A DNA stretch of 63,967 bases. Source: a virus. Its lineage: Duplodnaviria > Caudoviricetes. The stretch covers positions 1 to 63,967 of IMG/VR virus record IMGVR_UViG_3300031718_000009. One strand, given 5' to 3'. A program made the position numbers and the translations under genes. Of this stretch, positions 2,618 through 29,732 are shown in pieces. Each line of letters begins with the position of its first letter. Positions within the stretch are counted from its first letter, which is position 1. Under the pieces are notes generated by a model. It was not told where the DNA came from. It made no database searches and worked only from the letters and a program-made list of their open reading frames with translations.

Positions 2618-2760
2618 TCCGCCTCGGCTCATGGCTCAGTTCGGGTACAACGGATGCGCATGATTGAGCCGGCTGGCGCGTATGAACCGAGGCGAAACTT
2701 GACGAGAGTGTGCCCTAGCGGGCGCGAGGATGCGGGGACCATTTTCCACCTCTTGTCAAG
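2618..2760 (-). promoter_or_regulatory. Late-operon leader/promoter region with nested inverted repeats
   Basis: Stems 2618-2632/2682-2696 and 2633-2640/2663-2670; inverted repeat 2698-2708/2750-2760 containing TTGAC in each arm. Confidence 0.5.
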
Positions 2761-2811
2761 CGGTTGGCACAACTATTTTGTGGGCAACTCAAAATAACCG
2801 CCATATTCGCG

Positions 2812-3327
2812 CTAATAGAGGCCGATCTGTGTGGCACGGAGGGGCTGTGGATGGCACACTTCCCAGACAAGAACCCCGCGCGCATTGAGGGACGCCGCCA
2901 CGATGCAGAGCGCCTTTTCGCGTTTGCGGAAAAACGTCCGCGGAGCCCAAAGCTTATCCGCACAAAGCCGCTTAATCGATCGACCTTGCGAGACACGTAG
3001 CGCCCAAAGACCTGTGACAAGCGCCATACCAGGGTCCTCTCGCCGAAGTTCGCTTAACCACTCGAACGCAGCTTCCATGTGCTTAATCTCCTCTCCGCTC
3101 GGCTGCGGCCGGCGCCCACGGTTTGCCGCCTCCTCGCGCATCTTGCGTTCGATCGGATCAATCCCAAGTTGATCACCCCACTCCGTCATCGTCGTTGGCC
3201 AATTTCCGCCAGGCGCGCGAGGACCGGCAGCCACAGGCATCATGGCCAGCGTGACGAACGCTTGAACGATTGCCTGCCCTACGCGCTCCGCATCCCACAT
3301 TTGCACAGCCTCAATGGTTGTCGCCAT
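2812..3327 (-). CDS. DUF6362-like putative late-gene regulator (Q-analogous position)
   Basis: W....V...AF.TL..MP, P..EI..ME....WL and a C-terminal HTH-like segment; directly upstream of the late leader. Confidence 0.6.
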   Translation of the reverse strand: MATTIEAVQMWDAERVGQAIVQAFVTLAMMPVAAGPRAPGGNWPTTMTEWGDQLGIDPIERKMREEAANRGRRPQPSGEEIKHMEAAFEWLSELRREDPGMALVTGLWALRVSQGRSIKRLCADKLWAPRTFFRKREKALCIVAASLNARGVLVWEVCHPQPLRATQIGLY

Positions 3328-3783: not shown

Positions 3784-4019
3784 TCCGCAATCTCCGGTAT
3801 GCCTGCACCGAGCTTCGCGCGCAGTTCTGGGGATAACGGCGGGAGGGGTTTGTCCCGGTACTTGGCGGCGAGAGCGGCTTCAATGTCGCGATCCGCTTCG
3901 GCATAAAGTTCGTCTCGATTTTTGTGCAACACCTTCTCGAAATCTCTACCGAGAGGTTGCATGCTGTTTGCCAATTCGCGGATTAGCGTGCTTACTGGTG
4001 CTCGATCGTTGGTTGTCAT
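3780..4019 (-). CDS. Hypothetical protein
   Basis: ORF track; ATGA-coupled. Confidence 0.65.
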   Translation of the reverse strand: MTTNDRAPVSTLIRELANSMQPLGRDFEKVLHKNRDELYAEADRDIEAALAAKYRDKPLPPLSPELRAKLGAGIPEIAE

Positions 4020-4594
4020 GTGCAGTCTTTCGCTTCAAGTTTTTTCCAGCAACTTGGCGGTTGCCCCTCGTATGCTGGCGCAAACTCGCCAGCCTTGAAC
4101 AACCGTCCTCCTATCCGCTTTGTCGGTACCCAACGGCTCTCTTGCCTTAATTCACCATTAAAAGACTCTTTTTTAATATTGTAATTGTAATTGTAGAGCA
4201 GAGGGTGTAGCACATCGGTAGCATTGCTATGTATCCTCCCCTTATTTTTCAATGCTTTAGCAGTCCCGCCAAGGTGCCCCGCGAGCTTCTTTTTTTGATG
4301 CCTCGCGAGCGCATTTAAAATCTCGTCGCGAAGCCTCTTTTGCGTTATCTCTTGGCCGTCCGATCCTTCGACTATCGTCATGAAATCCATGATCTTTTTC
4401 TCAATTTTCATCCATTGAGGCATAGGTGCGCCGGCTATCAATGCTAACTTTTTGCTATTTTTTGCTAGCTTTCCGCCATTTCGCCACATCGCCATCAAAA
4501 TGAGGAGGTATGCGCCATGCTCGAACGTCGTCAGGTGGCGTGTGTCGCCCAAATAATCGTCCGTCCAAAGGATCATTCCAGGGATGTCGGTCAT
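4016..4594 (-). CDS. DUF1376/YdaU-family replication initiator (lambda O analogue)
   Basis: N-terminal motif WTDDYLGDTRHLTTFEHGAYLLILMAMW and QKRL; internal AT-rich stretch at about 4165-4230. Confidence 0.82.
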   Translation of the reverse strand: MTDIPGMILWTDDYLGDTRHLTTFEHGAYLLILMAMWRNGGKLAKNSKKLALIAGAPMPQWMKIEKKIMDFMTIVEGSDGQEITQKRLRDEILNALARHQKKKLAGHLGGTAKALKNKGRIHSNATDVLHPLLYNYNYNIKKESFNGELRQESRWVPTKRIGGRLFKAGEFAPAYEGQPPSCWKKLEAKDCT

Positions 4595-4814: not shown

Positions 4815-5819
4815 TCATTCGGCAGCCTCGGCGACTTCGTTGCCCCACGCATCCCACCCCGGCCGCGGCGAACCACGACGGAAAAGCTCGATCTTTGGAA
4901 GCGTTGGAAAATACTCGTCGATCATGTCTAGGAAGCACTCAGGCTTCGCGGAGTGCTTACCAACCGGCGCTTCGATTAACGAAGGCCATTGCGTACCCAT
5001 CGCAGGCGCCGGAATATTTCCATGGACGCCAATTAGCAAAAGCTCATGCTTGTTGCGGTTCCAATATCCGGTCCCAATTTTGTCCTTTGCCCAGACAAAA
5101 TGAGAGCGGTAATCGAACCCCCAATCCGCCATTAATTGAAGCGCTTGAGGAAGCATCGGAACGGTTGACCAAAGGAACAAGACACAATCTTCCGCCGCGA
5201 TCGGAATAAGCCCACTATCAGGAAAAAGGAGCGCTGGAAGCGCGATCGTCGGATAGTGATTGTCAGCCGCGCGGTCCATACCTGTTTCGCGTGACCGTGG
5301 CTCAAAACGCCACGGTGGATCACCGTAAATCAAACCATATTTTTTATCAGGAAGAGCCGTTTGCTTGGCGCCTAGCTCGGCTTCTCGCGCAACCCTCGCG
5401 GCCTTCTTTTCCTCGGTGCGCTCGACAGCGGTTGCCTCCACAGATTTCACGGCATGATGCTTGGCGTGAGCGCACCGCGCCTCAAAACTAACATCGTCCA
5501 AGGCCGCCAATTTTTGCCATCGCGATGACTGCATAGCGGAAACGCCGAGGTCAGAAAGAGTAACCTTATGTGACCCTTTTTCTGGCCTGTTAATTGGGCG
5601 CTCGCCTTTCTCACGCATCTCGGTAAGAAGTTGCCCAGCCTTACGCTCGGCGCGTAAGCGTATTTCAGTCGCCCATTCGATGAGCTGGCCATCCTTGGCC
5701 TGCCGAGCATATTCCTGCATTGCCATGGCTTTGTCGCGGATCGATTTAACCTCATCGACGCGATTAGCTTCGGCCAAGGCATTGCGCGCAGCATCGTATC
5801 GAGTAAGTTGCATGCTCAT
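4815..5819 (-). CDS. MT-A70-family N6-adenine methyltransferase
   Basis: IYGDPPW, VLFLW, WGF.Y, VWAK, GTGYW.RNKHELLL, HSAKP and KIELF.R motifs. Confidence 0.92.
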   Translation of the reverse strand: MSMQLTRYDAARNALAEANRVDEVKSIRDKAMAMQEYARQAKDGQLIEWATEIRLRAERKAGQLLTEMREKGERPINRPEKGSHKVTLSDLGVSAMQSSRWQKLAALDDVSFEARCAHAKHHAVKSVEATAVERTEEKKAARVAREAELGAKQTALPDKKYGLIYGDPPWRFEPRSRETGMDRAADNHYPTIALPALLFPDSGLIPIAAEDCVLFLWSTVPMLPQALQLMADWGFDYRSHFVWAKDKIGTGYWNRNKHELLLIGVHGNIPAPAMGTQWPSLIEAPVGKHSAKPECFLDMIDEYFPTLPKIELFRRGSPRPGWDAWGNEVAEAAE

Positions 5820-6208
5820 CTCAAAATGTCCTTGAGCCTGATCAGCGCGACGGTGAACCTGCCGCCGTCGCCAGCCCTATCTCGCCATTGTCCGGCGCGG
5901 ATCGCTTCGCGCGTAAGTTCCTTTAATCGCCAGACAGGAAACATCAAATAGACGAGCGTGCTGTCATCGCGTCGCAGCTCGTGAACCCATACGTCCGCTT
6001 CAGTCGTTGCGATCCCGGACGGCTCGCCGTTCTGCCGGTATTCGATGCAAATATTACCCGTCTGTTCCCATTGCCATGTCTCGCTTTTGAGCTCGATGCG
6101 CCCATTGCAAAGGATGCCCGCAAGCTCATGTTCGCGCAAACGCGCTTGGCTCAATTGAAGATCAAACTTGTTGTCACGATTGAATTCGATTGGTCCGCAC
6201 CCGCTCAT
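5816..6208 (-). CDS. Phage protein, possible PD-(D/E)XK-type nuclease fold
   Basis: IELK...TGNICIEY...PSGI.TTEAD.W motif. Confidence 0.55.
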
Positions 6209-7422
6209 GACAAAAGCATCCTGCTTAAAACATCGATTTCCTCGGCAAGCGCCTTGTCCTCGGCGACAAGCTTTTCGATCTTTCGCACGCCATGCAATAC
6301 CGTTGTGTGATCTCTACCGGCGAACCGCCGCGCAATGTCCGGCAGTGATCTCAGCGTCAACTGCTTTGAGAGATACATAGCGATCTGGCGCGGGCGCACC
6401 ACGCACGCGGTTCGCCGCGCGGATAAGATGTCGTCGCGGGTTACGTTGAAATGGCTCGCGACCATTTTCTGTATGGCCTCGATCCTGACCTTTTTCCGCT
6501 CTGGCTCGCACACAAGATCACAAATGGCGGACTCGGCGAGCTCCATTGTCACATGGCCTGGAGATTGGTAGTGATGATGCTCAGAATTTTTCACCGACGA
6601 ACACGCTACTAGACGGTTTACCGCTCCCACGAGATCGCGCCCGTTTGTCTGAATAACGCTCGCGATGTAGGCGATAACCTCGGCTGGAACCTCAAAAGTT
6701 TGATGCACCAGTTTGACGGCGGCTATGCGCGCTTCGAGAATTTTGACCCGTAAATCCGCATCTAGCGGACCGATTTCGATGCAGAGGCCGCCGGCAAAGC
6801 GCGAGCGGGTTCTTTCTTCGAGACTTTCGAGATCGCGCGGCGGGCAATCGGCCGCGACTATGATCTGCTTTTGAATGTCGTCGAAAAAGGCATTAAGCGC
6901 ATAACAAAACTCCTGTTGAATCGACTTGCCCTGAAGAAATTGAATGTCGTCGATCACGAGGACATCAACAGCACGTAGTCTTTCCTTGAACGCGCATGCC
7001 GTCTGTGCCTTGAGGGCTGACACGAACCCGTACATGAACCGATCCGCGGTCAAATAGAGGACTTGCCGGTTTGCGGCTGCGGCCTGCGCTACAGCTTGGA
7101 GAAGATGCGTTTTCCCCAACCCAACCGAGGCATGTAGATACAACGGATTGTAAATAGGCTTGATCGCACACGCCGCTCTGTTCGCCTCGACGTATGCCAC
7201 GCGGTTCGAGTCGCCGACATGGAAGCTCGTAAACGTCATGCGGGGATCGAGCGAAGAGCCGGTAATAGGCTCGACTGTCTTCTGTGGCGGTTTGACTGTC
7301 TTCTGTGGCGGCTGGATGGATTTCTTGGGCGGCGGCGGAAACCATGCCTCATGAATGCGATCATGCTCCGCGGCGATATGATCGAGCAGCGATGAACCCG
7401 TGTTGTGGCGAAGATCGGTCAT
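6205..7422 (-). CDS. dnaA: DnaA homologue with AAA+ domain III and DNA-binding domain IV; domain I absent
   Basis: [26 protein letters not shown] (Walker A), VLVIDDIQF (Walker B), RSRF, NGRDL, RQIAMYL and RDHTTVLH. Confidence 0.95.
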
Positions 7423-7751
7423 GCCCGCTCTCCACTATTCTGTCGTTGTTGATCACCGAGAGCGTCAAGATAAGTTCTAGGAGAGTAATATGGTTTTGGG
7501 TCGCGCCATTCTTTATCCTTCGCAGCGCGCTTCATATCGTCAGTAATATTTATGCACCTGTCGCCGCCTTCTTCGCGACACACAGACGAACAAAATTTTG
7601 GAATTGGAACCTCATCATCAAGCTCCCTGACGCTGCAAAATGTTGACCAATTGCGGCCCCAAACTTCAAGCTTCAGGCAAACGCAACAGCAATGGAGAAG
7701 CCTTCCTTCAATCGTTTTCCTTCTTTGCGGTCCAAGTTCTCGATCGGTCAT
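7419..7751 (-). CDS. Cys-rich hypothetical protein (possible Zn-binding)
   Basis: ATG at 7751 coupled to the ruvC-like stop; CCCVC and FCSSVC motifs; flanked by a 22-bp direct repeat. Confidence 0.65.
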
Positions 7752-8347
7752 GCCGGCTCTCCATACATGGTCAATTCCGAAGGAATTGAGCGCGCGAATT
7801 TGGCGCAGCCGTAATCCCACAAAGCACAACTGTTAGCTTCATCCCATCCAGTAGAGCCTTCCGGCAGATAGCCGAGCAGGATGGCGCGGCGAAGAACCGC
7901 CTCGTTGATGAACTTGCGTGCCTCGATCGCTTCTTTCGAGGTCCGCTTGTGGCCACACACCGCAGGTGCGTGCGCCATGCCACAGAAATGCTTGCGAACC
8001 GCCATCACTGGCGCTAACGCGACGTCTACATCGAAGATCGCAGAAACGCCTTGCAAGGTGCCATGTAAATGAAGCTGGTAGATGGTCGCGTCGGCACTCT
8101 TAGACGCCGCCGGATTCATCGGCGCCTCGGTGATGATTAGCTGTTCGCTTGGCCCCTCGCTTTTCCAGTGACAGAGTTTTTCATGCAGCCACTCGCCGAG
8201 AAATCGCGCACGCTTTTCCGCGCTCGTTCCGCGCAAAGTCACGGCCTCGATGTGCGGGCATTCACCAAAGTGGCTCTTGCCAAACAGCGACGAATCGCCG
8301 TCCGCGACGCCCATACGTGTGCCGAGGTCGAGAGCGAGAATGCGCAT
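7748..8347 (-). CDS. RuvC-like Holliday junction resolvase
   Basis: MRILALDLGT..G.A, IITEAP, VRKHFCG and DEA..ALW motifs. Confidence 0.8.
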   Translation of the reverse strand: MRILALDLGTRMGVADGDSSLFGKSHFGECPHIEAVTLRGTSAEKRARFLGEWLHEKLCHWKSEGPSEQLIITEAPMNPAASKSADATIYQLHLHGTLQGVSAIFDVDVALAPVMAVRKHFCGMAHAPAVCGHKRTSKEAIEARKFINEAVLRRAILLGYLPEGSTGWDEANSCALWDYGCAKFARSIPSELTMYGEPA

Positions 8348-22422: not shown

Positions 22423-25400
22423 TTATCTCGCTTGCTGGAAATTCGCGCCTGCTTTGATCAGCGCCTCGAAGACAGCCGTAGCTCTGTCTGGTGGCGCGAG
22501 CGCACGCATTACGCTGCCGCGCTTGATGAATTCGTCGCGGTCGAGCGCTTCGAGGACACCAGGATCGAGGAAGTATTTTCCGCCGATCTGTCGCGCGCCA
22601 GCGATAGAAATAAGAAAGCCACCCGATGGGTGGCCTGTGATCGTGATCGCGCCGTCCGCGGATTCCGCGGTGCCCCCAGGTTTTTCCAGGTATTTGATGA
22701 TTTCTCTCGGCTCTCGAAGTTTTTTGACGGCCCCGGCGACAACTTCCTTGTGCGATGTCTGCGCGCGAGGAGCCATAAGCCCCTGTCGAACGGTGCCATC
22801 ATCCATCGTGAAGTGTGCGATTTGCCCGACCTTGTGAAGTAGATCGTATGCCGCGAGCAAATTCCCCGTGGCGATCACCCGCTTTTCGCGAAGCTCGGAC
22901 TTGAAGCTGTCGAACAGCTTGGCGATTTCTGTGGCACTCGTCTTCGATGGATTGACGTGCATCGCGTTCGCCTCGCCGGTCTCTCCAGTCGTCAACTGCG
23001 AGAAAGGAACAGTCCTTGTGCCATAGCCAGGCATCGCGAGCACCGCGGACCAACTCGACGCGGCGTAGGGATTGATCGTCTTGCCTTCATGTTTTACCCC
23101 AACGACAAGCGCATCCGGCAAGGGCGTCTCATGGTTATTGGTGTGCAGGATGGCGCCAGGAAAGACAACGGCCAACTTGTCTCTCATGGCCTCCCTGCCG
23201 TCCGCCAATCGATTAGCTTGCTCTGCCGCTACCTCCGGGTCTTTGGTAATCGCCGTCATCGCGCTCTTGTATTCGTTGAACGCCTGATCGGCGCGGGTCA
23301 TCATCGCGGTATTGGCCTTCCCGCCAGCCGTTTGGAGCGCTTCGAGCGGCGCGAATTTTGGCACGATTTCTCGTCCCAGCATCGCATAAGCGGATTTCAT
23401 CACGTCATCGAATTTCGGCGGCTTGCGGGCGCTCTTGACGTCATACGTACCGACATGCACGGCGGCTTGGAACGGGCTATCGCCAGTCTTTGGAGAGATG
23501 TCCGCGCCGCCCTCGTACTTGGCCTGGAGATCAAGATGTTTGGCCTCAAGCGCATTTTCCCCGCGCTCGTCGAGATCGTCGATCTTGGCTTTGTATTGGC
23601 TCTCGATCGCGTCGTATATCCGTTCTTGGTCTTGCGGGTCTAGCAATGCGATGCGTCCGGTCGTCTTACGCGCGGCGTCTTCGTCCGGGTCTTTCGGATC
23701 AAGCGACTCTAGCGGCTCGCCAAGGTCGATATGAGCGCGCATGTCATCGAGCATAACCTGCGTCACCACTTCATCGCCGTAGTGGTTCAGGAAATCGACC
23801 GCGCCCTTGCCGGAAAGGCCGCTTTTCGCGTCCGCCGTCGTATTGGCGTTTAGGGAGGAAAGTTTCTTGGCGAGCACCGCCATCGGCCGCTTTTCCGCCG
23901 GTACATCGGCACCAAGATGGGCATAGCGCGGCTTGGACACTTGACCTGTGCGCAGGACACGACCGAGCATTTGCATATGAACAGTGATGTTCGGATGCGC
24001 CTGAGCGATGATCATGGCCCGCTGGCCGCGGCCGCTTTCCGGGAATGCCTCGCTATCGTGAAGCGAGATGCCGGTCGCACCGCTTTCGTTTAGAATGAGC
24101 GCTTTCAGTTTCCCGGAATTGAAATCTTTGACCGTCTGGGTGCGGCCCGCAACGGATTTTTCTTTTGGCGATCTGACCCCGATCCGCGGGATATTGCCCT
24201 TCCCGTAATCGAGCGTGTTGTTGCGGCCGGTGATTTCTGAAACGGAATGACCTGCTTGCGAAATCACCTGCCGTATTTTGTCGATCGGCGAGATCGGAAG
24301 CTTGCCGAAATCAAGCCCGTTGATGATGGCTTGCGCCTGATGATACGCGGCCAACCCCTCCGGTCCTAGCTCTTCGTCGGTCATCGTGTGTTTGTCTTCG
24401 ACGGCGCCGAATGGTTTTTTGATCGTGACGACGCGCGATCGATCGAGATAGCGCGAGAGAAGATCGCCGAAGTTCGCTCTGATGAGGTCGCCGGTCTTTG
24501 CGCCGGTCTGCTTCATGTAGTCAGAGACGAAGCTTTCCAGCGTGTTTGCGACGGCGATTACCGGGCGCTCGCCCCTGTTGATCGCCTCGACCGCAAGCTG
24601 CCCTGCGCGTTCCGCCTTCGAGGCGAGGAGGAATTGCGCAACGACGTTGTGCATGAGGGAGGTAAAATTCGTGCTTTCGGCCCCGGCCGTCCCAACCGAG
24701 GCATCTTGCCCGGCAATCGCGGCCTCGGCCTTGACTTGTTTGTCAATGTCCTTGACGGATTTGCCAGCTTTCTTTGAGAATTCATTAATCGCCCGCAACG
24801 CCCGCGAAAAGCCGGCATAGAGCTCGCGATCGATCGGCGTCACTTCCATATCGTATTTGATGCCGTCGAAAGACCGCTCGCGGCGAAGATACTGGCCGCT
24901 CTCGGCAAGCGCGGACGCAACAACTTGCTGCATCGGCACGCCGCCCTTTTTGATCGCCTCGCCGAGGTCCTTCATATCTGAGACGGCGTAGCGCATGTCG
25001 GTCTTGGAATAGAGCCGCATACTGTCCGGCCGCTTGGCATAGGTCGCCGAGGAATACGCAACGGCCTTGGCCTTTTGGACAAGCTCGCGGGCGAACTCGG
25101 CGCGATCTGCAGGGGGCGGGAGCTTGCCCTTTGCAATGCGCTTCTCGACGGCCGCACCGCCGGCATTATGGCTCTCGTCGAAAAGAATGATCGAGTTCGG
25201 CGCCATGCTCCGCAGAAAGTCCCGCCGCGCCGTATTCTGACCTTTGACCGTTTGCATTTGCGAGTAAGTGGTCATGATCATGTCGTGATCAAGCAGCCTA
25301 GCGCCGACGCGGTTGCTGCCCTGTTGGTTCCCGGTCGCCGCGATGTCGCGGAGTTGTTTCTCCTGCTCTGGGCCGTCCGGCGTTTTCAGAATTGTTCCTT

Positions 25401-28400
25401 GATCGCCGACCGGCAGCTTCAAGTTGCTATTGGTGGGCAGAATGCGCGGCTCGCGACCAAGCATGTCCGTCATCCCAATGTCCGTCATATCGTCGAACAT
25501 GGCGGCGTACAGATTGGGTTTCTCCGTGACGAAAATAGGCGTCATCCCGTTACGGATGCCGTAACGAAGGAGACCGGCAAGAACGCGGCCCTTGCCGATG
25601 CCGGTTTGATCGCCGAGGATCAACGAGGCGCCACGCTCGATGTTGTCGATCGCGAGTCCGAGCGCATCGACCTGCTCGGCGGAATAGTGCTTGCCGAGAT
25701 CGGCGGCTTTGTAGCCAAGCTCGCTTGCAACATATTTGGCGATCGGACCGTGACGACTTTCGACGCGGGCGAGAGCGGCGTCCGAGGCGTCGCGCATGTT
25801 CCGCGGCGCGAGCGTGCCGAGTTTCATGCCGGACGTAGATTTCGGGCTATAGGCTACCTGATTTTCGGTTTCGGCTTCTTTCGGGGCCTCGGGTTGTGCT
25901 GGTGCGGCAGGAGCAGCCCGCGGCTGGCGTGGTTCCGGCTTGAGAACGAAATGAACCTCGTCGTCACCCCACGGGGCCGCGCTACGATTGCGCACGTCCG
26001 AAGGAAGCCCTTCCGGCATATCCAGACGGCCAAGGTTTATCTCGCGCGCTTTGCCAGCCTGTACGAGCCTTTCCTTGAAGCTCGCGAGCGTGCCGGCGTC
26101 TGGATATTTGCGCCCGTAGGCATCATAGACTTGGGAGATCGCGACGCGCGTAGGGAACGGCGGCGTTTCGAGCTTATAGGCCACGTCCTTGACGCGATCG
26201 GCGAAGCTTGGCTCCGGCGTGCTTACTCCAGGTGGCCGTCGTTCGGCAGCACGCGGAGCGCCATGTCCTCCGGGTCCTCCGCGCACAGGACGTTCGGCAG
26301 GTTCAGGTGCGGCAGGTGGTTCTCGATGCTCATGTTGTTGAGGAACATTTGTTGGCCGAAGTGCTCCGGGTTCGACTTCGGGTCGATGTTCGGTTCCAGC
26401 ATTCCCGCGTCCGACATCGATCGGTTTATCCGCCTGATCATGTCCGGGCGTTCCGACTGCGGGACTCGGTGCATTAACGTCTGCGCTCGCGCCGCTAACT
26501 GGCTGCGGATGGCTTGGTTGCTGGGCAACGGCTTTCTCCTTTACTTCGCCCCACGTCTTTAAAATGGGGGGCGCGGTCATCATCGGGTAGGGGAGCGCGG
26601 ATTTCCCGGCCCCGGAAATCGTGATTACATCGACCGGCCAGCCGGCGCCCTGCTTCTCGTAGAGGTCGCCCGCGACGGTGAAATGCCCATCGACATTGAA
26701 CTTGTCATAGAGTGTCTTAAAAAACTCGCGCTTGGTCTTCGATCCGTATGCCTTTGTTCTCGCTTCGTCGGACTTCGCCAACGGCGACGGCCCACCGAGG
26801 ATCAGGACGGCCCGCCCGTCCGGCTTCATCGCGGCAAGCGAGTTCAGCGCGATAGCATGATCGATCTCGCCAGTCTCATAGCCAGGCTGGAAACGCGATA
26901 GGTCAAAACGGTCCCCTGCACCACCTTCGCCGTGACGCACTCCAAAAGGAGGGTTAGCAAGTACAATATCGAACGGACCATCGTTTTGCTTGACCGCCGC
27001 TTCGGCTGTTGCAGGTTTCGAGGCATCTCCGGTCATAGCAAAGAAGCCCTGTGACTTCAATGCGTTTATCCGTCCTCGGTTCAATTCGTTGGCAACAGTA
27101 TCGACGGCGTGCGCCTCAATCAAGAGCGCGCCGTTGCCCGCGGACGGCTCGTAGACTGTCTTGTCCGGCGCGACGCCAGCGAGCCTCGAAGCGGCATAGG
27201 CGAGCGGGATCGGCGTCGAATAAGCCTGGTCGCGCATCGAGGACGAGGTTCGCGTTCCAAGCTTCGGCTGGTCGGCGTAGAGCTTGACGAGCCGGTCGAA
27301 AGTGTCCGCCGGATCGGCGCCGTGGATATTGACGATCTGGCGCGCGGCCTTGACGACGCCTAACTCGACATTTTCCTCGAACGCCTTGAGCTGGTTTGGG
27401 TCCTTGAGATCGTGGCCCGTGACCTTGGCGGCATTCTCGCGCGAGAGCGGGACACTCGCCAGAAGGTGCATTGCGATTTTATCGGCCGGCGTATGGACAG
27501 GTTCGCTCTGGCCGCTCGCGAGGACCAAGCGGCCGGTTTCGAGCGCGTTCTGGGTAGCGGCGGCAAGCGCAGCACTGTCCGCCATCCAGGGTTTTTTGAC
27601 CTGGGCTGATTGTGGCGGCTTTGTGGCTTCTCGTTCATTTAACGAGACTGGCGTGTGAGATAGAAATCCACCCTGATTTCTAACTTTTTCGGCATTCTCG
27701 CGCGCCTCTCGGTCCTTTAGCGCCTGCGGCGTCGCTTGATAGGCACCTACGCTTGGTGCCGCTTCCGGTGCGCCAGGAGCAGGGCTTTTGCCCAGCGCTG
27801 GTAGCGCAACTGGTCCGGTCCTCGCGACAGGCGGGCGAGGCTCTGGAGGCGCCTGAGCAAGGTTTTGTATTGGCTCGGGGGCAGCGGGGAGTTGTTCGCC
27901 ATCTTGGATGCCCTGAACTTTCGGATCGGCGAGCGCCGCCTCGATGACAGCGTGCTCGTACGCTTCGTCCGGCGCCATTCCTGAAGCTTGGTGCTGTTTG
28001 GCGGCGGCCGCGGCCGGCGGATCGATGTCGATCGGACGAAGGCCGAGGGGCGGCGCAATTCCCCGCACAATTTCTGGCGTTGATATTGCTGGCTTTTCGG
28101 CTAATTGCGCGGACGGCGCGGAATTCGGCGCATTTCCTGGCGCAATTGGCTCGAAGCCTTCCGGCAGCGTACCTGACGGTTTGGCAAACGGCTTCTTGGC
28201 CTGCCCGCTCGCCAGCCATGTTTTGAGCTGGTCGATCGGGACTTCGGTAATTCCACCGATACGCTGCGGTGCGGAGCCGTCCGGGAAGGCCGCATCGTAG
28301 ATGCGCGTAGCCTCAGTTACGTTATCGACGCCTGCGACGATCTTGTGCTCGTCAAATTTTCCCGTCGCCGGGTCGTTCTGGTCGATAACGAATGCTTTTC

Positions 28401-29538
28401 CGTTCGGCCCTTTGTCGCCGAGGAAAATATCGACCTGATCGCCATCCTTACCGACTGAGCCCTTCAGATACCCGTAGTCCGCCGGGAGCACGGAGCTCCA
28501 TGGGGCGCCGGTCGGATCGACGCCTGACCGGATCGAGCCCTTGGGATTTTCGATCGTGACGGGGAGCCCGTCATAATTCACATGGCCTTTCTGGTAATTC
28601 CCGGCTTCGGCTTGCGGCGGTGTTGGCGCGGTGTCTACGACGTTGCGCGCGGGCTCGATGTCTTCCGGCGCGGCGATCTTGGCCGGGGTTTGGCGAGTTC
28701 CGGTCTGAGCCTCCGCATTCGGCGGTTGAACTGCTTCTTGGACTTCTGGCGGTTGTGGCGGGGCATTCGCAGCGGCCTGTGGCGGCGCGATCTGCACCGG
28801 GGGACCGCCAGCTTCTTTGTTTTTTATGAACTGGTCAATCTCTGCGCGTGTCTTTGCCCCAGCCGCGCGCGCTGAGGCGATATCCGCCTCGTTCAAGAAA
28901 CGTTCTACATCGGTTCCTTGGATGTCCGTTGGTTGTCCAACCGCTGTGGACAATTTCCCAGCGGCATGTCCAGTCGCCAATTGAGCGGCGAGCTGTGCCG
29001 CGGTCTTAAATCCCTCCGGCGCCGCCTCTGCGGCTGCCCCGCCGGCGCCGCCCGCCGCAGCGCCGATCGCAGCCGTCGTTGCCGTTGGCGCGCCGGTGAT
29101 CGCCTGTGTCGTTTCTAGGGCCGGTCCAGCGAGCGTTCCGGCCTTGCCGAGCAGCCCAACGGCAGTTGCCGGTAGGGTAGCGGCCGCGGCGCCATAACCG
29201 GTCGCATGGGCGATCTTCTCGGCCGTCGTCGCGTCTGGTGCGAGATCAGGGTTGATGCCGACCTGACGCTCAATCTCTCGCAACCACGCCGAGCCCATGA
29301 TGGGCGCCGGGTTGGTTTGCAGACCAACTCCGCGCAATGCCGTGTTGGCGATATCGACCGGAAGCCCGGCTATTCCCGCAATGGCGGCGTTAGGACCGGC
29401 TGCCGCGGCACCGAGCAGCCCGCGCGCCGTGGTTTGGCGGGGCGGCGGCGGGTAGAGTTTGTCATCGACGTATTCAAAGTCGGGAGGGAGAGGATGTTGA
29501 GGCGGCGGCGCAAATTCGGCGAAGAAATTGGCGCTCAT
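22423..29538 (-). CDS. DarB-like polyvalent virion protein, 2,371 aa: inorganic-pyrophosphatase-like domain, N6-adenine MTase and Strawberry-notch SF2 helicase
   Basis: GNYQKGH..IENPKGS.R..DYGY..DGDQVD; QAYSTP, YEPSAGNG and NPPF; GDQTGIGKGR, FDESHN, YSSATYAK, GISLH and QMLGRV.RTGQ. The ATG at 29538 is ATGA-coupled. Confidence 0.9.
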   Translation of the reverse strand: MSANFFAEFAPPPQHPLPPDFEYVDDKLYPPPPRQTTARGLLGAAAAGPNAAIAGIAGLPVDIANTALRGVGLQTNPAPIMGSAWLREIERQVGINPDLAPDATTAEKIAHATGYGAAAATLPATAVGLLGKAGTLAGPALETTQAITGAPTATTAAIGAAAGGAGGAAAEAAPEGFKTAAQLAAQLATGHAAGKLSTAVGQPTDIQGTDVERFLNEADIASARAAGAKTRAEIDQFIKNKEAGGPPVQIAPPQAAANAPPQPPEVQEAVQPPNAEAQTGTRQTPAKIAAPEDIEPARNVVDTAPTPPQAEAGNYQKGHVNYDGLPVTIENPKGSIRSGVDPTGAPWSSVLPADYGYLKGSVGKDGDQVDIFLGDKGPNGKAFVIDQNDPATGKFDEHKIVAGVDNVTEATRIYDAAFPDGSAPQRIGGITEVPIDQLKTWLASGQAKKPFAKPSGTLPEGFEPIAPGNAPNSAPSAQLAEKPAISTPEIVRGIAPPLGLRPIDIDPPAAAAAKQHQASGMAPDEAYEHAVIEAALADPKVQGIQDGEQLPAAPEPIQNLAQAPPEPRPPVARTGPVALPALGKSPAPGAPEAAPSVGAYQATPQALKDREARENAEKVRNQGGFLSHTPVSLNEREATKPPQSAQVKKPWMADSAALAAATQNALETGRLVLASGQSEPVHTPADKIAMHLLASVPLSRENAAKVTGHDLKDPNQLKAFEENVELGVVKAARQIVNIHGADPADTFDRLVKLYADQPKLGTRTSSSMRDQAYSTPIPLAYAASRLAGVAPDKTVYEPSAGNGALLIEAHAVDTVANELNRGRINALKSQGFFAMTGDASKPATAEAAVKQNDGPFDIVLANPPFGVRHGEGGAGDRFDLSRFQPGYETGEIDHAIALNSLAAMKPDGRAVLILGGPSPLAKSDEARTKAYGSKTKREFFKTLYDKFNVDGHFTVAGDLYEKQGAGWPVDVITISGAGKSALPYPMMTAPPILKTWGEVKEKAVAQQPSHPQPVSGASADVNAPSPAVGTPGHDQADKPIDVGRGNAGTEHRPEVEPGALRPTNVPQQHEHREPPAAPEPAERPVRGGPGGHGAPRAAERRPPGVSTPEPSFADRVKDVAYKLETPPFPTRVAISQVYDAYGRKYPDAGTLASFKERLVQAGKAREINLGRLDMPEGLPSDVRNRSAAPWGDDEVHFVLKPEPRQPRAAPAAPAQPEAPKEAETENQVAYSPKSTSGMKLGTLAPRNMRDASDAALARVESRHGPIAKYVASELGYKAADLGKHYSAEQVDALGLAIDNIERGASLILGDQTGIGKGRVLAGLLRYGIRNGMTPIFVTEKPNLYAAMFDDMTDIGMTDMLGREPRILPTNSNLKLPVGDQGTILKTPDGPEQEKQLRDIAATGNQQGSNRVGARLLDHDMIMTTYSQMQTVKGQNTARRDFLRSMAPNSIILFDESHNAGGAAVEKRIAKGKLPPPADRAEFARELVQKAKAVAYSSATYAKRPDSMRLYSKTDMRYAVSDMKDLGEAIKKGGVPMQQVVASALAESGQYLRRERSFDGIKYDMEVTPIDRELYAGFSRALRAINEFSKKAGKSVKDIDKQVKAEAAIAGQDASVGTAGAESTNFTSLMHNVVAQFLLASKAERAGQLAVEAINRGERPVIAVANTLESFVSDYMKQTGAKTGDLIRANFGDLLSRYLDRSRVVTIKKPFGAVEDKHTMTDEELGPEGLAAYHQAQAIINGLDFGKLPISPIDKIRQVISQAGHSVSEITGRNNTLDYGKGNIPRIGVRSPKEKSVAGRTQTVKDFNSGKLKALILNESGATGISLHDSEAFPESGRGQRAMIIAQAHPNITVHMQMLGRVLRTGQVSKPRYAHLGADVPAEKRPMAVLAKKLSSLNANTTADAKSGLSGKGAVDFLNHYGDEVVTQVMLDDMRAHIDLGEPLESLDPKDPDEDAARKTTGRIALLDPQDQERIYDAIESQYKAKIDDLDERGENALEAKHLDLQAKYEGGADISPKTGDSPFQAAVHVGTYDVKSARKPPKFDDVMKSAYAMLGREIVPKFAPLEALQTAGGKANTAMMTRADQAFNEYKSAMTAITKDPEVAAEQANRLADGREAMRDKLAVVFPGAILHTNNHETPLPDALVVGVKHEGKTINPYAASSWSAVLAMPGYGTRTVPFSQLTTGETGEANAMHVNPSKTSATEIAKLFDSFKSELREKRVIATGNLLAAYDLLHKVGQIAHFTMDDGTVRQGLMAPRAQTSHKEVVAGAVKKLREPREIIKYLEKPGGTAESADGAITITGHPSGGFLISIAGARQIGGKYFLDPGVLEALDRDEFIKRGSVMRALAPPDRATAVFEALIKAGANFQQAR

Positions 29539-29732
29539 CGCTGGCGCACCATCCAACACCACCAAGTCGGCGGGGGCTTCCAATCCGGGATTGAATAATC
29601 TATCATGCCAGGATCAACCCAGACCTCTGTCATCCCTAGAGCCGCCTTTATCCAATGGATTATTAACGCGACAAATAGAACACAATTGATGAAAACCAGA
29701 CAACGAAACAACAGACCATATTTATTCATCAT
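29535..29732 (-). CDS. Small membrane protein
   Basis: Hydrophobic N-terminal half; coupled to the giant gene. Confidence 0.5.
   Translation of the reverse strand: MMNKYGLLFRCLVFINCVLFVALIIHWIKAALGMTEVWVDPGMIDYSIPDWKPPPTWWCWMVRQR

Follow-up and report, generated by a model that had tools for sequence, protein, structure and literature searches.

DnaA is the universal bacterial replication initiator, and its domain I serves as the hub for helicase loading and for regulation. Here we describe a phage-encoded DnaA that retains AAA+ domain III and DNA-binding domain IV and has no domain I. The gene, referred to as dnaA, lies in the IMG/VR virus record IMGVR_UViG_3300031718_000009 (Caudoviricetes), a stretch of 63,967 nucleotides that was analyzed at its full length and that we call the window.

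The closest described proteins are the chromosomal DnaAs (TIGR00362). Domains III and IV of the phage protein are ∼70% identical to them, score above the family cut-off, contain the contact residues, and nest in a starred clade of our tree, whereas the phage protein differs from the chromosomal family in having no domain I, another N terminus, a place in a phage replication operon, faster evolution, and a shifted GC content. Phage proteins consisting of only the DnaA C-terminal domain (PF08299) share domain IV with the window protein, and in cultured phages the identity reaches 57%. They belong to early or replication modules, mostly in phages of Alphaproteobacteria, and at one viral locus (L037) the order of a domain-IV-only gene, an MT-A70 gene, and a DUF1376 gene is the order of the window. 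Examples have been described in HTVC010P-type pelagiphages (PMC8477408), and further ones are found in Pelagibacter phage Skadi, Bradyrhizobium ppBeUSDA76-2 and ppBjS10J-1, and Aurantimonas AmM-1. If a size of ∼130–250 aa is taken as characteristic of this class, the window protein falls outside it with its 405 aa and full PF00308 domain. Because the domain-IV-only proteins have no AAA+ domain, they cannot bind ATP, oligomerize by an arginine finger, or melt DNA. What is new relative to the published domain-IV-only genes, as PMC8477408 portrays them, is that the whole AAA+ engine is kept.

DnaA homologues outside the main chromosome are also found as the DnaA-like initiators of alphaproteobacterial plasmids and chromids (Paracoccus pYEE2 and the Roseobacter group), where they are described as the replicases of chromids (PMC6209633). 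By that description these replicons carry PAR modules, which sets them apart from the phage, whose 64-kb genome has an integrase and no ParA or ParB match (ParB_N, AAA_31). The architecture of the phage protein has been made in the laboratory by truncating Escherichia coli DnaA to domains III–IV, and this protein is reported to open oriC in vitro while supporting neither replication nor viability (PMC5448010). Unlike the engineered protein, the phage protein is natural, is under selection, and has a new conserved leader. Prophage genes that act on host initiation via DnaA have been described as well, namely YfdR of E. coli CPS-53 and YqaH of Bacillus subtilis skin; such action is a proposal for the phage DnaA, and whereas YfdR and YqaH are small DnaA-binding proteins unrelated to DnaA, the phage protein is itself a DnaA. 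Hda and the DnaC/IstB loaders are in the same AAA+ clade, but those families have no domain IV, and the phage protein falls below both cut-offs (Hda TIGR03420, 79.5 versus 194.8; IstB NF038214, 38.6 versus 200). We take the layout of a short N-terminal peptide followed by an AAA+ module to recall that of DnaC.

Text searches of the literature returned no paper on a phage DnaA with an AAA+ domain and without domain I, although supplementary tables might list such proteins; a table in a 2025 paper lists COG0593 DnaA in Sinorhizobium phiLM21-like prophages without comment. Judged by its sequence, the phage protein is a member of the DnaA family that departs from it in two defining features, domain I and the role of chromosomal initiator, since the gene lies in a virus record that is complete and has terminal repeats and phage structural genes.

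Results

The phage DnaA has domains III and IV and no domain I

The dnaA open reading frame (ORF) starts with ATG and encodes 405 aa (Table 1), with GGAG located 7 nt ahead of the ATG. The in-frame opening extends 4 codons upstream of this ATG, and with only 409 open codons in total, the frame leaves no room for a domain I ahead of dnaA. At both of its ends, the gene overlaps a neighbor by ATGA: the upstream ORF stops in the overlap at the dnaA start, and the downstream ORF starts in the overlap at the dnaA stop, so that dnaA is translationally coupled to its neighbors. In Pfam searches, Bac_DnaA (PF00308) matched residues 58–215 with 166 bits and Bac_DnaA_C (PF08299) matched residues 314–382 with 99 bits, and DnaA_N (PF11638) had no match in the phage DnaA at E ≤ 0.01. 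Viral loci L003 and L008 do match PF11638 and served as positive controls. TIGR00362 matched with 382.4 bits against a cut-off of 343.9, with profile positions 78–437 of 437 aligned, and a six-frame search with the same profile gave 381.6 bits. Pfam, TIGR00362, and the limit of the reading frame therefore agree with a preliminary description made from the sequence alone, in which the protein was called a near-complete phage-encoded DnaA without domain I.

The same description listed Walker A, Walker B, box VII, sensor II, and domain IV motifs as intact, and this is what we observe, as GLGKTH, VIDDIQ, RTRSRF, NGRDL, RQIAMYL, and RDHTTVLH are each found in the translation. At K104, T105, D158, D159, R204, R208, and R262, the phage protein has the majority residue of the corresponding column in 269 relatives, and column counts over these 269 DnaAs show R337, P361, D371, H372, T373, and H377 of domain IV to be conserved. 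Based on work with the E. coli and A. aeolicus proteins, we take K104/T105 to be Walker A residues, D158/D159 Walker B, R204/R208 box VII, and R262 sensor II, and the six domain IV residues are presumably contacts to the bases of the DnaA box. As far as can be read from these residues, the phage DnaA keeps every residue class for ATP binding and hydrolysis, for an arginine-finger oligomer, and for reading DnaA boxes.

An AlphaFold2 (AF2) model computed with a 53-sequence alignment had a mean predicted local distance difference test score (pLDDT) of 89.8, with domains III and IV confident and residues 26–55 of low confidence. By sequence, the nearest entries among solved structures are the DnaA chains of 8BTG (E 1.6e-73), 1L8Q, and 2HCB. 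A BFVD fold search gave generic AAA+ proteins and one 170-aa DnaA C-terminal protein as its top 50, with no near-complete DnaA among them.

Two peculiarities pointed out earlier, AADCPP in place of AADRPP and a HHHY-containing insertion, are real and not special, since both occur at naturally variable positions. Among 269 other DnaAs, the column of the AADCPP Cys is occupied by R 216 times, by K 18 times, and by C 9 times, and because the column varies in this way, AADCPP can be ruled out as a functional lesion. The His-rich insertion was defined relative to nine relatives, and it is not unique because the same loop of the lid bears an insertion in five other DnaAs among the 269.

A leader and spacer replace domain I

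Where domain I and most of the linker would be, the phage protein has a 28-aa leader and a Pro-rich spacer (Table 1). AF2 predicts a single helix in the leader, at residues 11–25 (7348–7392). Two metagenomic proteins, P0127 and P0012, encoded on contigs of 13 kb and 40 kb, share the leader, with 18/28 and 12/28 residues identical, respectively; over the rest of the protein, identity to P0127 amounts to 177/325 residues. Conservation of the spacer is poor (7/28 and 6/20 residues identical). The PPQKTV duplication reported earlier was found at exactly the coordinates given for it, with 18-nt exact copies at 7273–7290 and 7294–7311, and a repeat search describes it as a 21-nt tandem repeat at 7268–7309 with 90% identity, coding for PPQKTV(K/E) twice.

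A leader profile searched against 1670 sequences found the window protein, P0012, and P0127 and nothing else below E 0.05. In a 5.8-billion-protein set, a leader-only search that depends on shared 5-residue words returned solely the protein itself, and a degenerate DNA pattern for the leader, which misses the TTR leucine codon at one position, had 0 matches in viral_contigs and metagenome_contigs. We also considered one leader motif common to all domain-I-less and domain-IV-only forms, and rejected it, as a profile of five domain-IV-only leaders missed the window leader and decoy frames scored equally. Complex predictions of residues 1–57 with the DUF1376 protein, the phrog_13596 protein, or the 110-aa ORF scored 0.00 and count neither way.

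The gene derives from a host chromosome

Relatives were taken as the best 120 in the 5.8-billion-protein set. The top matches are chromosomal DnaAs with ∼70% identity over 87% of the query, and those with a named source come from Methylocella, Methylocapsa, or Beijerinckiaceae. When species-representative genomes were searched, metagenome-assembled genomes of Hyphomicrobiales and Methylocella matched best (70–71%). In a maximum-likelihood tree of 29 rows and 379 columns, the window protein, P0012, and P0127 form one clade with support of 91/84, and this trio lies inside the starred 8-row clade (97/99) along with the chromosomal L082, L083, L085, and L087 and with P0126. The window protein thus nests among the chromosomal DnaAs of Methylocella-like Hyphomicrobiales. 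The end branches of the three mobile copies are long, at 0.83, 0.26, and 1.62, as compared with 0.02–0.05 for the hosts.

In a second tree of 37 rows, P0012 is placed beside L082 (95/95) and the window protein with P0127 (94/90). The approximately unbiased (AU) test does not reject the window protein, P0012, and P0127 as one clade (p 0.238), so that one capture followed by fast evolution is an adequate explanation; a later exchange with a host gene is possible. Searching metagenomes for the DNA of P0127 returned three distant loci only, at 31–35% identity. As judged from the trees and matches, the phage dnaA is a DnaA xenolog taken from the chromosome of a Methylocella-like (Beijerinckiaceae/Hyphomicrobiales) host lineage and since adapted to the phage.

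Base composition bears on how long ago this happened. The phage dnaA has a GC content of 0.549 and a GC content at third codon positions (GC3) of 0.628, and its neighbor genes have GC contents of 0.48–0.58; for dnaA of four sister hosts, the values are 0.605–0.613 (GC) and 0.70–0.73 (GC3). The GC3 of the gene has shifted to the local level of the phage, which implies a long residence.

Two other proteins deserve mention. P0126 (470 aa, on a 3.2-kb Logan contig) is a fast-evolving DnaA of the same starred clade that keeps domain I, has a degenerate sensor II region and Gln at the Arg of AADRPP, and may be another mobile copy. P0002 (518 aa) has no DnaA_N match on record and two tandem copies of domain IV, which could be either a real duplication or an assembly artefact.

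Domain-I-less DnaAs recur in other viruses

A profile-guided scan of IMG/VR gave at least 469 relatives among at least 599 pattern matches, and the best 80 loci were kept. Domain-IV-only ORFs account for 59 of these 80, an AAA+ domain plus domain IV for 20, and a contig-end fragment for 1. The expectation that domain-IV-only phage proteins would be the commoner form is borne out by these counts. The near-complete form is not unique: domain-I-less ORFs of 401–446 aa are present at 10 of the 20 AAA+-containing loci, as 8 distinct sequences, 8/8 without PF11638. Six of the 20 have domain I (L003 and L008 by Pfam, four as read from their N termini), and 4 have shorter ORFs of 328–350 aa. All three architectures, domain-IV-only, domain-I-less, and full-length, are represented among the IMG/VR loci. 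An all-against-all search with representatives added further ∼400-aa clusters with the same layout, approximately a dozen protein clusters at 50% identity.

The starred branches of the 37-row tree force at least four label changes, and 0/200 bootstrap trees unite the domain-I-less forms. In the AU test, monophyly of nine domain-I-less forms, a group that includes long branches, was rejected with a ΔlnL of 172.6 (p ∼1e-30). The domain-I-less forms are polyphyletic and arose in at least three host clades.

Homologues of the window MT-A70 protein are present in 9, and of the DUF1376 protein in 5, of the best 80 loci. A phrog_67-type DNA methyltransferase gene lies downstream in 4/5 other domain-I-less loci that were annotated, within 1 kb in L005, L011, and L014 and at ∼3 kb in L004, and in L012, a phrog_116 methyltransferase gene is just upstream of the domain-I-less dnaA. 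A gene annotated as "replication initiation protein" is found within ∼3 kb in 2/5 domain-I-less loci (L005 and L011), a helicase gene in the neighborhood of L014, and a sliding clamp gene in that of L004. Adenine methyltransferases of unrelated families (MT-A70, phrog_67, and phrog_116) stand beside DnaA-like genes of all three architectures (window 4815–5819, L002, L003, L004, L005, L011, L012, L014, L037, and L165), which may mean that methylation and DnaA-box proteins are functionally connected in phages of Alphaproteobacteria. The IMG/VR contigs L002, L003, L008, L010, L015, and L016 encode full-length DnaAs with domain I and could be phage, plasmid, or chromosomal fragments; in L002 and L003, a MT-A70 homologue directly follows the full-length dnaA.

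Among deposited phage genomes, a domain IV query matched 55 records, including Pelagibacter, Rhizobium, Bradyrhizobium, Brucella, Aurantimonas, and Microcystis phages, and the two records examined encode proteins of 163 and 170 aa. A full-length query reached ≥80% coverage in 33 records, all below 60% identity; the majority of these records are fragments without annotation or contigs from bacterial whole-genome projects that were deposited as phage. Of 201 genomes sampled from the host family, 198 gave a match and only 5 gave more than one, and no extra copy is a domain-I-less protein with AAA+ and domain IV. Instead, the additional matches consist of full-length copies, fragments at contig ends, a frame with 38% identity, and matches confined to domain IV. 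The latter occur in 2/201 genomes (G161:C1:473162-473419 and G050:C87:1771-2052) and may be prophage-borne, and their open frames of 360 and 427 aa are long enough that further domains may be attached.

The phage genome and a candidate DnaA-box region

The window is the whole IMG/VR record, a complete 64-kb genome with direct terminal repeats and a CheckV completeness of 100. It encodes a large terminase, portal, virion, and tail-fibre proteins, an exonuclease VIII-like protein, and a cell-wall hydrolase, as well as a tyrosine integrase and a cI-like repressor, and because of the structural genes, integrase, and repressor, we conclude that it is a temperate tailed phage, in this case from soil. 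The genes surrounding dnaA are listed in Table 1. That the phage has its own DUF1376 protein, as stated earlier, is confirmed by a PF07120 score of 48.3 bits against a cut-off of 30.1. This protein covers the first ∼130 positions only of PHROG profiles that are 272–345 long and annotated as "primosomal protein." NCBIfam gave no matches for ten neighboring proteins, and the 110-aa ORF upstream of dnaA had no Pfam, PHROG, or NCBIfam match; it contains a CCCVC run and more Cys pairs and may bind zinc. Elsewhere in the genome, a giant ORF (22423–29583, 2386 aa) matches at residues 261–472 a domain common to very large phage proteins with annotations as DarB-like antirestriction, endolysin, or virion proteins.

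A scan for 9-mers with up to two mismatches to the canonical DnaA box found 7 sites in the 400-bp interval 2701–3100, as compared with a genome mean of 0.84 per 400 bp. In local shuffles, some interval reached 7 in 9/500, and in the hemE-adjacent presumed oriC of two sister-host genomes, there are at most 3–4 such sites per 400 bp. An AT-rich intergenic stretch at ∼2580–2620 adjoins the cluster. Within 2580–2860, the AT-rich stretch is succeeded by three TGTGG-containing sites on one strand, at ∼2780, 2831, and 2846, that lie in and just past an intergenic region, and the whole is a candidate origin or operator.

Table 1. Coordinates of dnaA, its parts, the neighboring genes, and the candidate binding region in the window
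Feature	Position	Strand	Basis
dnaA: leader, spacer, AAA+ domain III, domain IV, no domain I	6205..7422	-	Pfam, TIGR00362, AF2
Leader, residues 1–28, in place of domain I	7339..7422	-	AF2, relatives
Pro-rich spacer, residues 29–57, predicted disordered, pLDDT ∼55, holds the tandem repeat	7252..7338	-	AF2, repeat search
AAA+ core (Bac_DnaA, residues 58–215; C193 within AADCPP)	6778..7251	-	Pfam, column counts
His-rich insertion, nine residues (282–290), lid subdomain loop after sensor II (R262), pLDDT ∼74	6553..6579	-	Alignment, AF2
Domain IV helix-turn-helix (Bac_DnaA_C, residues 314–382)	6277..6483	-	Pfam, column counts
RuvC-like resolvase gene, upstream, same leftward operon	7748..8347	-	phrog_159, E 7e-8
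Cys-rich ORF, 110 aa from ATG at 7751, stop overlaps dnaA start (ATGA)	7419..7751	-	Translation
Downstream ORF, 130 aa, phrog_13596 (function unknown), start overlaps dnaA stop (ATGA)	5816..6208	-	PHROG
MT-A70 family DNA methyltransferase	4815..5819	-	PF05063, 66 bits; phrog_359
DUF1376 protein, 192 aa, short form	4016..4594	-	PF07120, PHROG
Candidate binding region, seven 9-mers with ≤2 mismatches from the canonical DnaA box	2742..3086	.	Box scan

Possible roles of the phage DnaA

Our favored reading, with a probability of roughly 0.4, is that the phage DnaA is the origin-opening partner of the phage's DUF1376 protein, i.e., one part of a split initiator whose engine was borrowed from the host. 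The gene would be expressed from the early leftward operon along with the RuvC-like, MT-A70, and DUF1376 genes, and the protein would bind DnaA-box-like sites on the phage DNA, with 2742–3086 as the best candidate, oligomerize with ATP, and open the duplex. Because the phage DnaA is without domain I, it cannot recruit DnaB itself, and recruitment would be supplied by the DUF1376 protein, the leader helix, or host factors.

Several lines of evidence point this way. The gene is within a replication module and translationally coupled to both neighbors, and no other phage gene takes its role: the complete 64-kb sequence contains no DnaB-type helicase, no Toprim_3 primase, and no ParA or ParB, and its only match to the DnaC/IstB family (PF01695) is dnaA itself, at 19.9–20.5 bits versus a cut-off of 24.1. 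The DUF1376 partner, being of the short form, looks incomplete, and the dnaA product, having all of its catalytic and DNA-contact residues and few changes at host-invariant columns, looks functional. Methyltransferase and "replication initiation protein" genes recur at other domain-I-less loci. The box cluster at 2742–3086 lends weak support to a phage origin. In addition, domains III–IV of E. coli DnaA suffice to open oriC in vitro, according to PMC5448010, and the DnaA-like replicases of alphaproteobacterial chromids (PMC6209633) are a further precedent.

Other observations weigh against a split initiator. The DUF1376-type protein could itself be the initiator, and keeping domain I would be the simplest route to the helicase, full-length forms being present on six viral loci. 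In related phages, the slot of dnaA is taken by a gene for a domain-IV-only protein (L037), and such proteins are unable to melt DNA. Across the genome, canonical DnaA boxes show no enrichment (10 found versus 7.0 ± 2.45 expected), and the cluster is weak, consisting of 2-mismatch sites, with five of the seven inside an ORF. When boxes with at most one mismatch were counted, the maximum per 300 bp was 0 or 1 in 76/81 sources (80 viral loci plus the window). As between a phage origin and poisoning of the host oriC, the present evidence fits both.

In the poisoning alternative, which we regard as possible but doubtful, the phage DnaA binds the host oriC and co-polymerizes with host DnaA via the AAA+ interface. 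DnaB loading would fail because the phage subunit contributes no domain I; the host would then be unable to initiate, or would initiate at another time, and the phage itself would replicate by other means. Exactly the DnaB-loading domain is missing from the protein, and origin binding and oligomerization are kept; the N-terminally truncated E. coli protein is described as behaving in this manner, opening oriC and supporting no replication (PMC5448010). The heteromer with host DnaA is hypothetical, and a pure poison needs no conserved leader, yet the leader is 18/28 identical to that of P0127 as compared with 177/325 elsewhere. The phage protein is still host-like, at ∼70% identity and within the 97/99 clade with four chromosomal DnaAs, although the phage copies evolve many times faster (0.26–1.62 versus 0.02–0.05), which could erode a match to the host. 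Repeated origin in at least three host clades (p-AU ∼1e-30 for monophyly of nine) would fit matching to the local host, but repeated capture may instead reflect opportunity. The domain-IV-only proteins encoded at the corresponding position could compete for the same boxes in a simpler way, strong box clusters are not present near such genes in phage loci (76/81 sources), and YfdR and YqaH, as described, are precedents for prophage proteins that target DnaA. Against this stands the fact that a temperate phage without a helicase still needs host DnaB loaded somewhere. In its most far-reaching form, this proposal is that Hyphomicrobiales phages have repeatedly taken their own host's dnaA minus the helicase-loading domain, making a host-matched "Trojan" subunit that blocks DnaB loading at oriC and acts as a switch over host chromosome replication, with domain-IV-only proteins as the minimal form of the weapon; this too is tentative and in our estimate falls well short of an even chance.

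A role as a transcription factor or sensor is unlikely. Here the phage DnaA would be a box-binding regulator of phage or host promoters, switched by ATP and ADP, that couples the lytic program or DnaA-regulated cell-cycle genes to the replication state of the host. DnaA is described as a transcription factor as well as an initiator (PMC8203912), the domain IV contacts are intact, and the 2742–3086 cluster borders an intergenic region upstream of leftward genes. Alphaproteobacterial phages are reported to exploit cell-cycle regulators such as CtrA, but according to the same source, DnaA sites give no positional signal in the genomes of these phages (PMC9437464). It is also not obvious why a regulator would need the complete arginine-finger and sensor II machinery that is kept under selection.

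Selection on the gene and integrity of the assembly

Selection was assessed by a protein proxy, in which positions where four sister hosts agree were classed by their conservation among 78 Hyphomicrobiales chromosomal DnaAs. The window protein differs from the hosts at 29/40 columns that are <50% conserved, 43/106 that are 50–90% conserved, 16/85 that are ≥90% conserved, and 10/104 that are invariant (98/335 in all classes), i.e., 72% of the variable columns and 10% of the invariant columns have changed. P0012 and P0127 show the same gradient. By domain, the changes are 36/160 in IIIa, 20/59 in the lid, and 20/88 in IV. Because the substitutions avoid host-conserved columns, the phage DnaA is under purifying selection, and the neutral evolution that the preliminary description had envisaged as a way for its proposal to fail is rejected.

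These data make it very unlikely that dnaA is a passenger, i.e., part of a host dnaA that was transduced not long ago and now decays or is of no consequence to the phage. A passenger might be suspected from branches that are long relative to the host sisters, from Arg-to-Cys changes at residues 193, 301, and 305, which are CGN-to-TGY transitions as expected from AT-ward drift, and from the fact that no RNA run is among the listed runs containing the stretch. However, the 405-codon frame is intact despite the many residues changed, the gradient between invariant and variable columns is strong, and all catalytic residues are retained. The GC3 of 0.63 is at the phage level as compared with 0.70–0.73 in the sister hosts, which points to long residence, the leader is common to two diverged relatives, and the architecture recurs in other phages.

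Two studies each contributed one soil-metagenome run that contains the stretch. In the run that is probably the source, the Logan contigs break inside dnaA at 6939–6949, in the Walker B region (window 6920–6968), and the resulting pieces of 10,708 and 53,030 nt, with mean depths of 45.6 and 35.8, are linked only by a 49-nt piece. The contigs of the other study cover 6661–7144, across the break, 7141–7515, which includes the gene start and 93 nt upstream, and 5504–6245, which includes the gene end and the downstream gene, with 0 differences each. Thus, although the break, the 49-nt join, and the unequal depths could be taken as signs of a chimera in which a host dnaA fragment was wrongly joined into the phage contig, a possibility also named in the preliminary description, dnaA is not a misassembly, because contigs of an independent study bridge both gene ends and the interior without differences, and a chimera is made scarcely credible further by the lengths of the two source contigs, which sum to that of the phage genome, the match in GC content between dnaA and its neighbor genes, the ATGA overlaps that tie it to both of them, and the identity of only ∼70% to any host gene. 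A separate 462-nt contig with a depth of 33.6 matches 35 nt of the domain IV region apart from 3 differences (window 6458–6492). This contig could represent dnaA from a different organism, perhaps the host, with a depth close to that of the phage.

Discussion

The phage DnaA described here is a natural initiator without the domain I hub, one that is kept under selection, and such forms have arisen several independent times. It would therefore provide a test of what domains III–IV can do alone in vivo. If the protein serves a phage origin, origin melting and helicase recruitment would be split between proteins in bacteria without DnaC. If it is instead a poison of the host orisome, it would define a new class of takeover factors in phages and would offer a natural template from which inhibitors of initiation could be built. 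The protein may also offer a functional handle on the widespread and unstudied DnaA-domain-IV-only genes of alphaproteobacterial phages, including pelagiphages.

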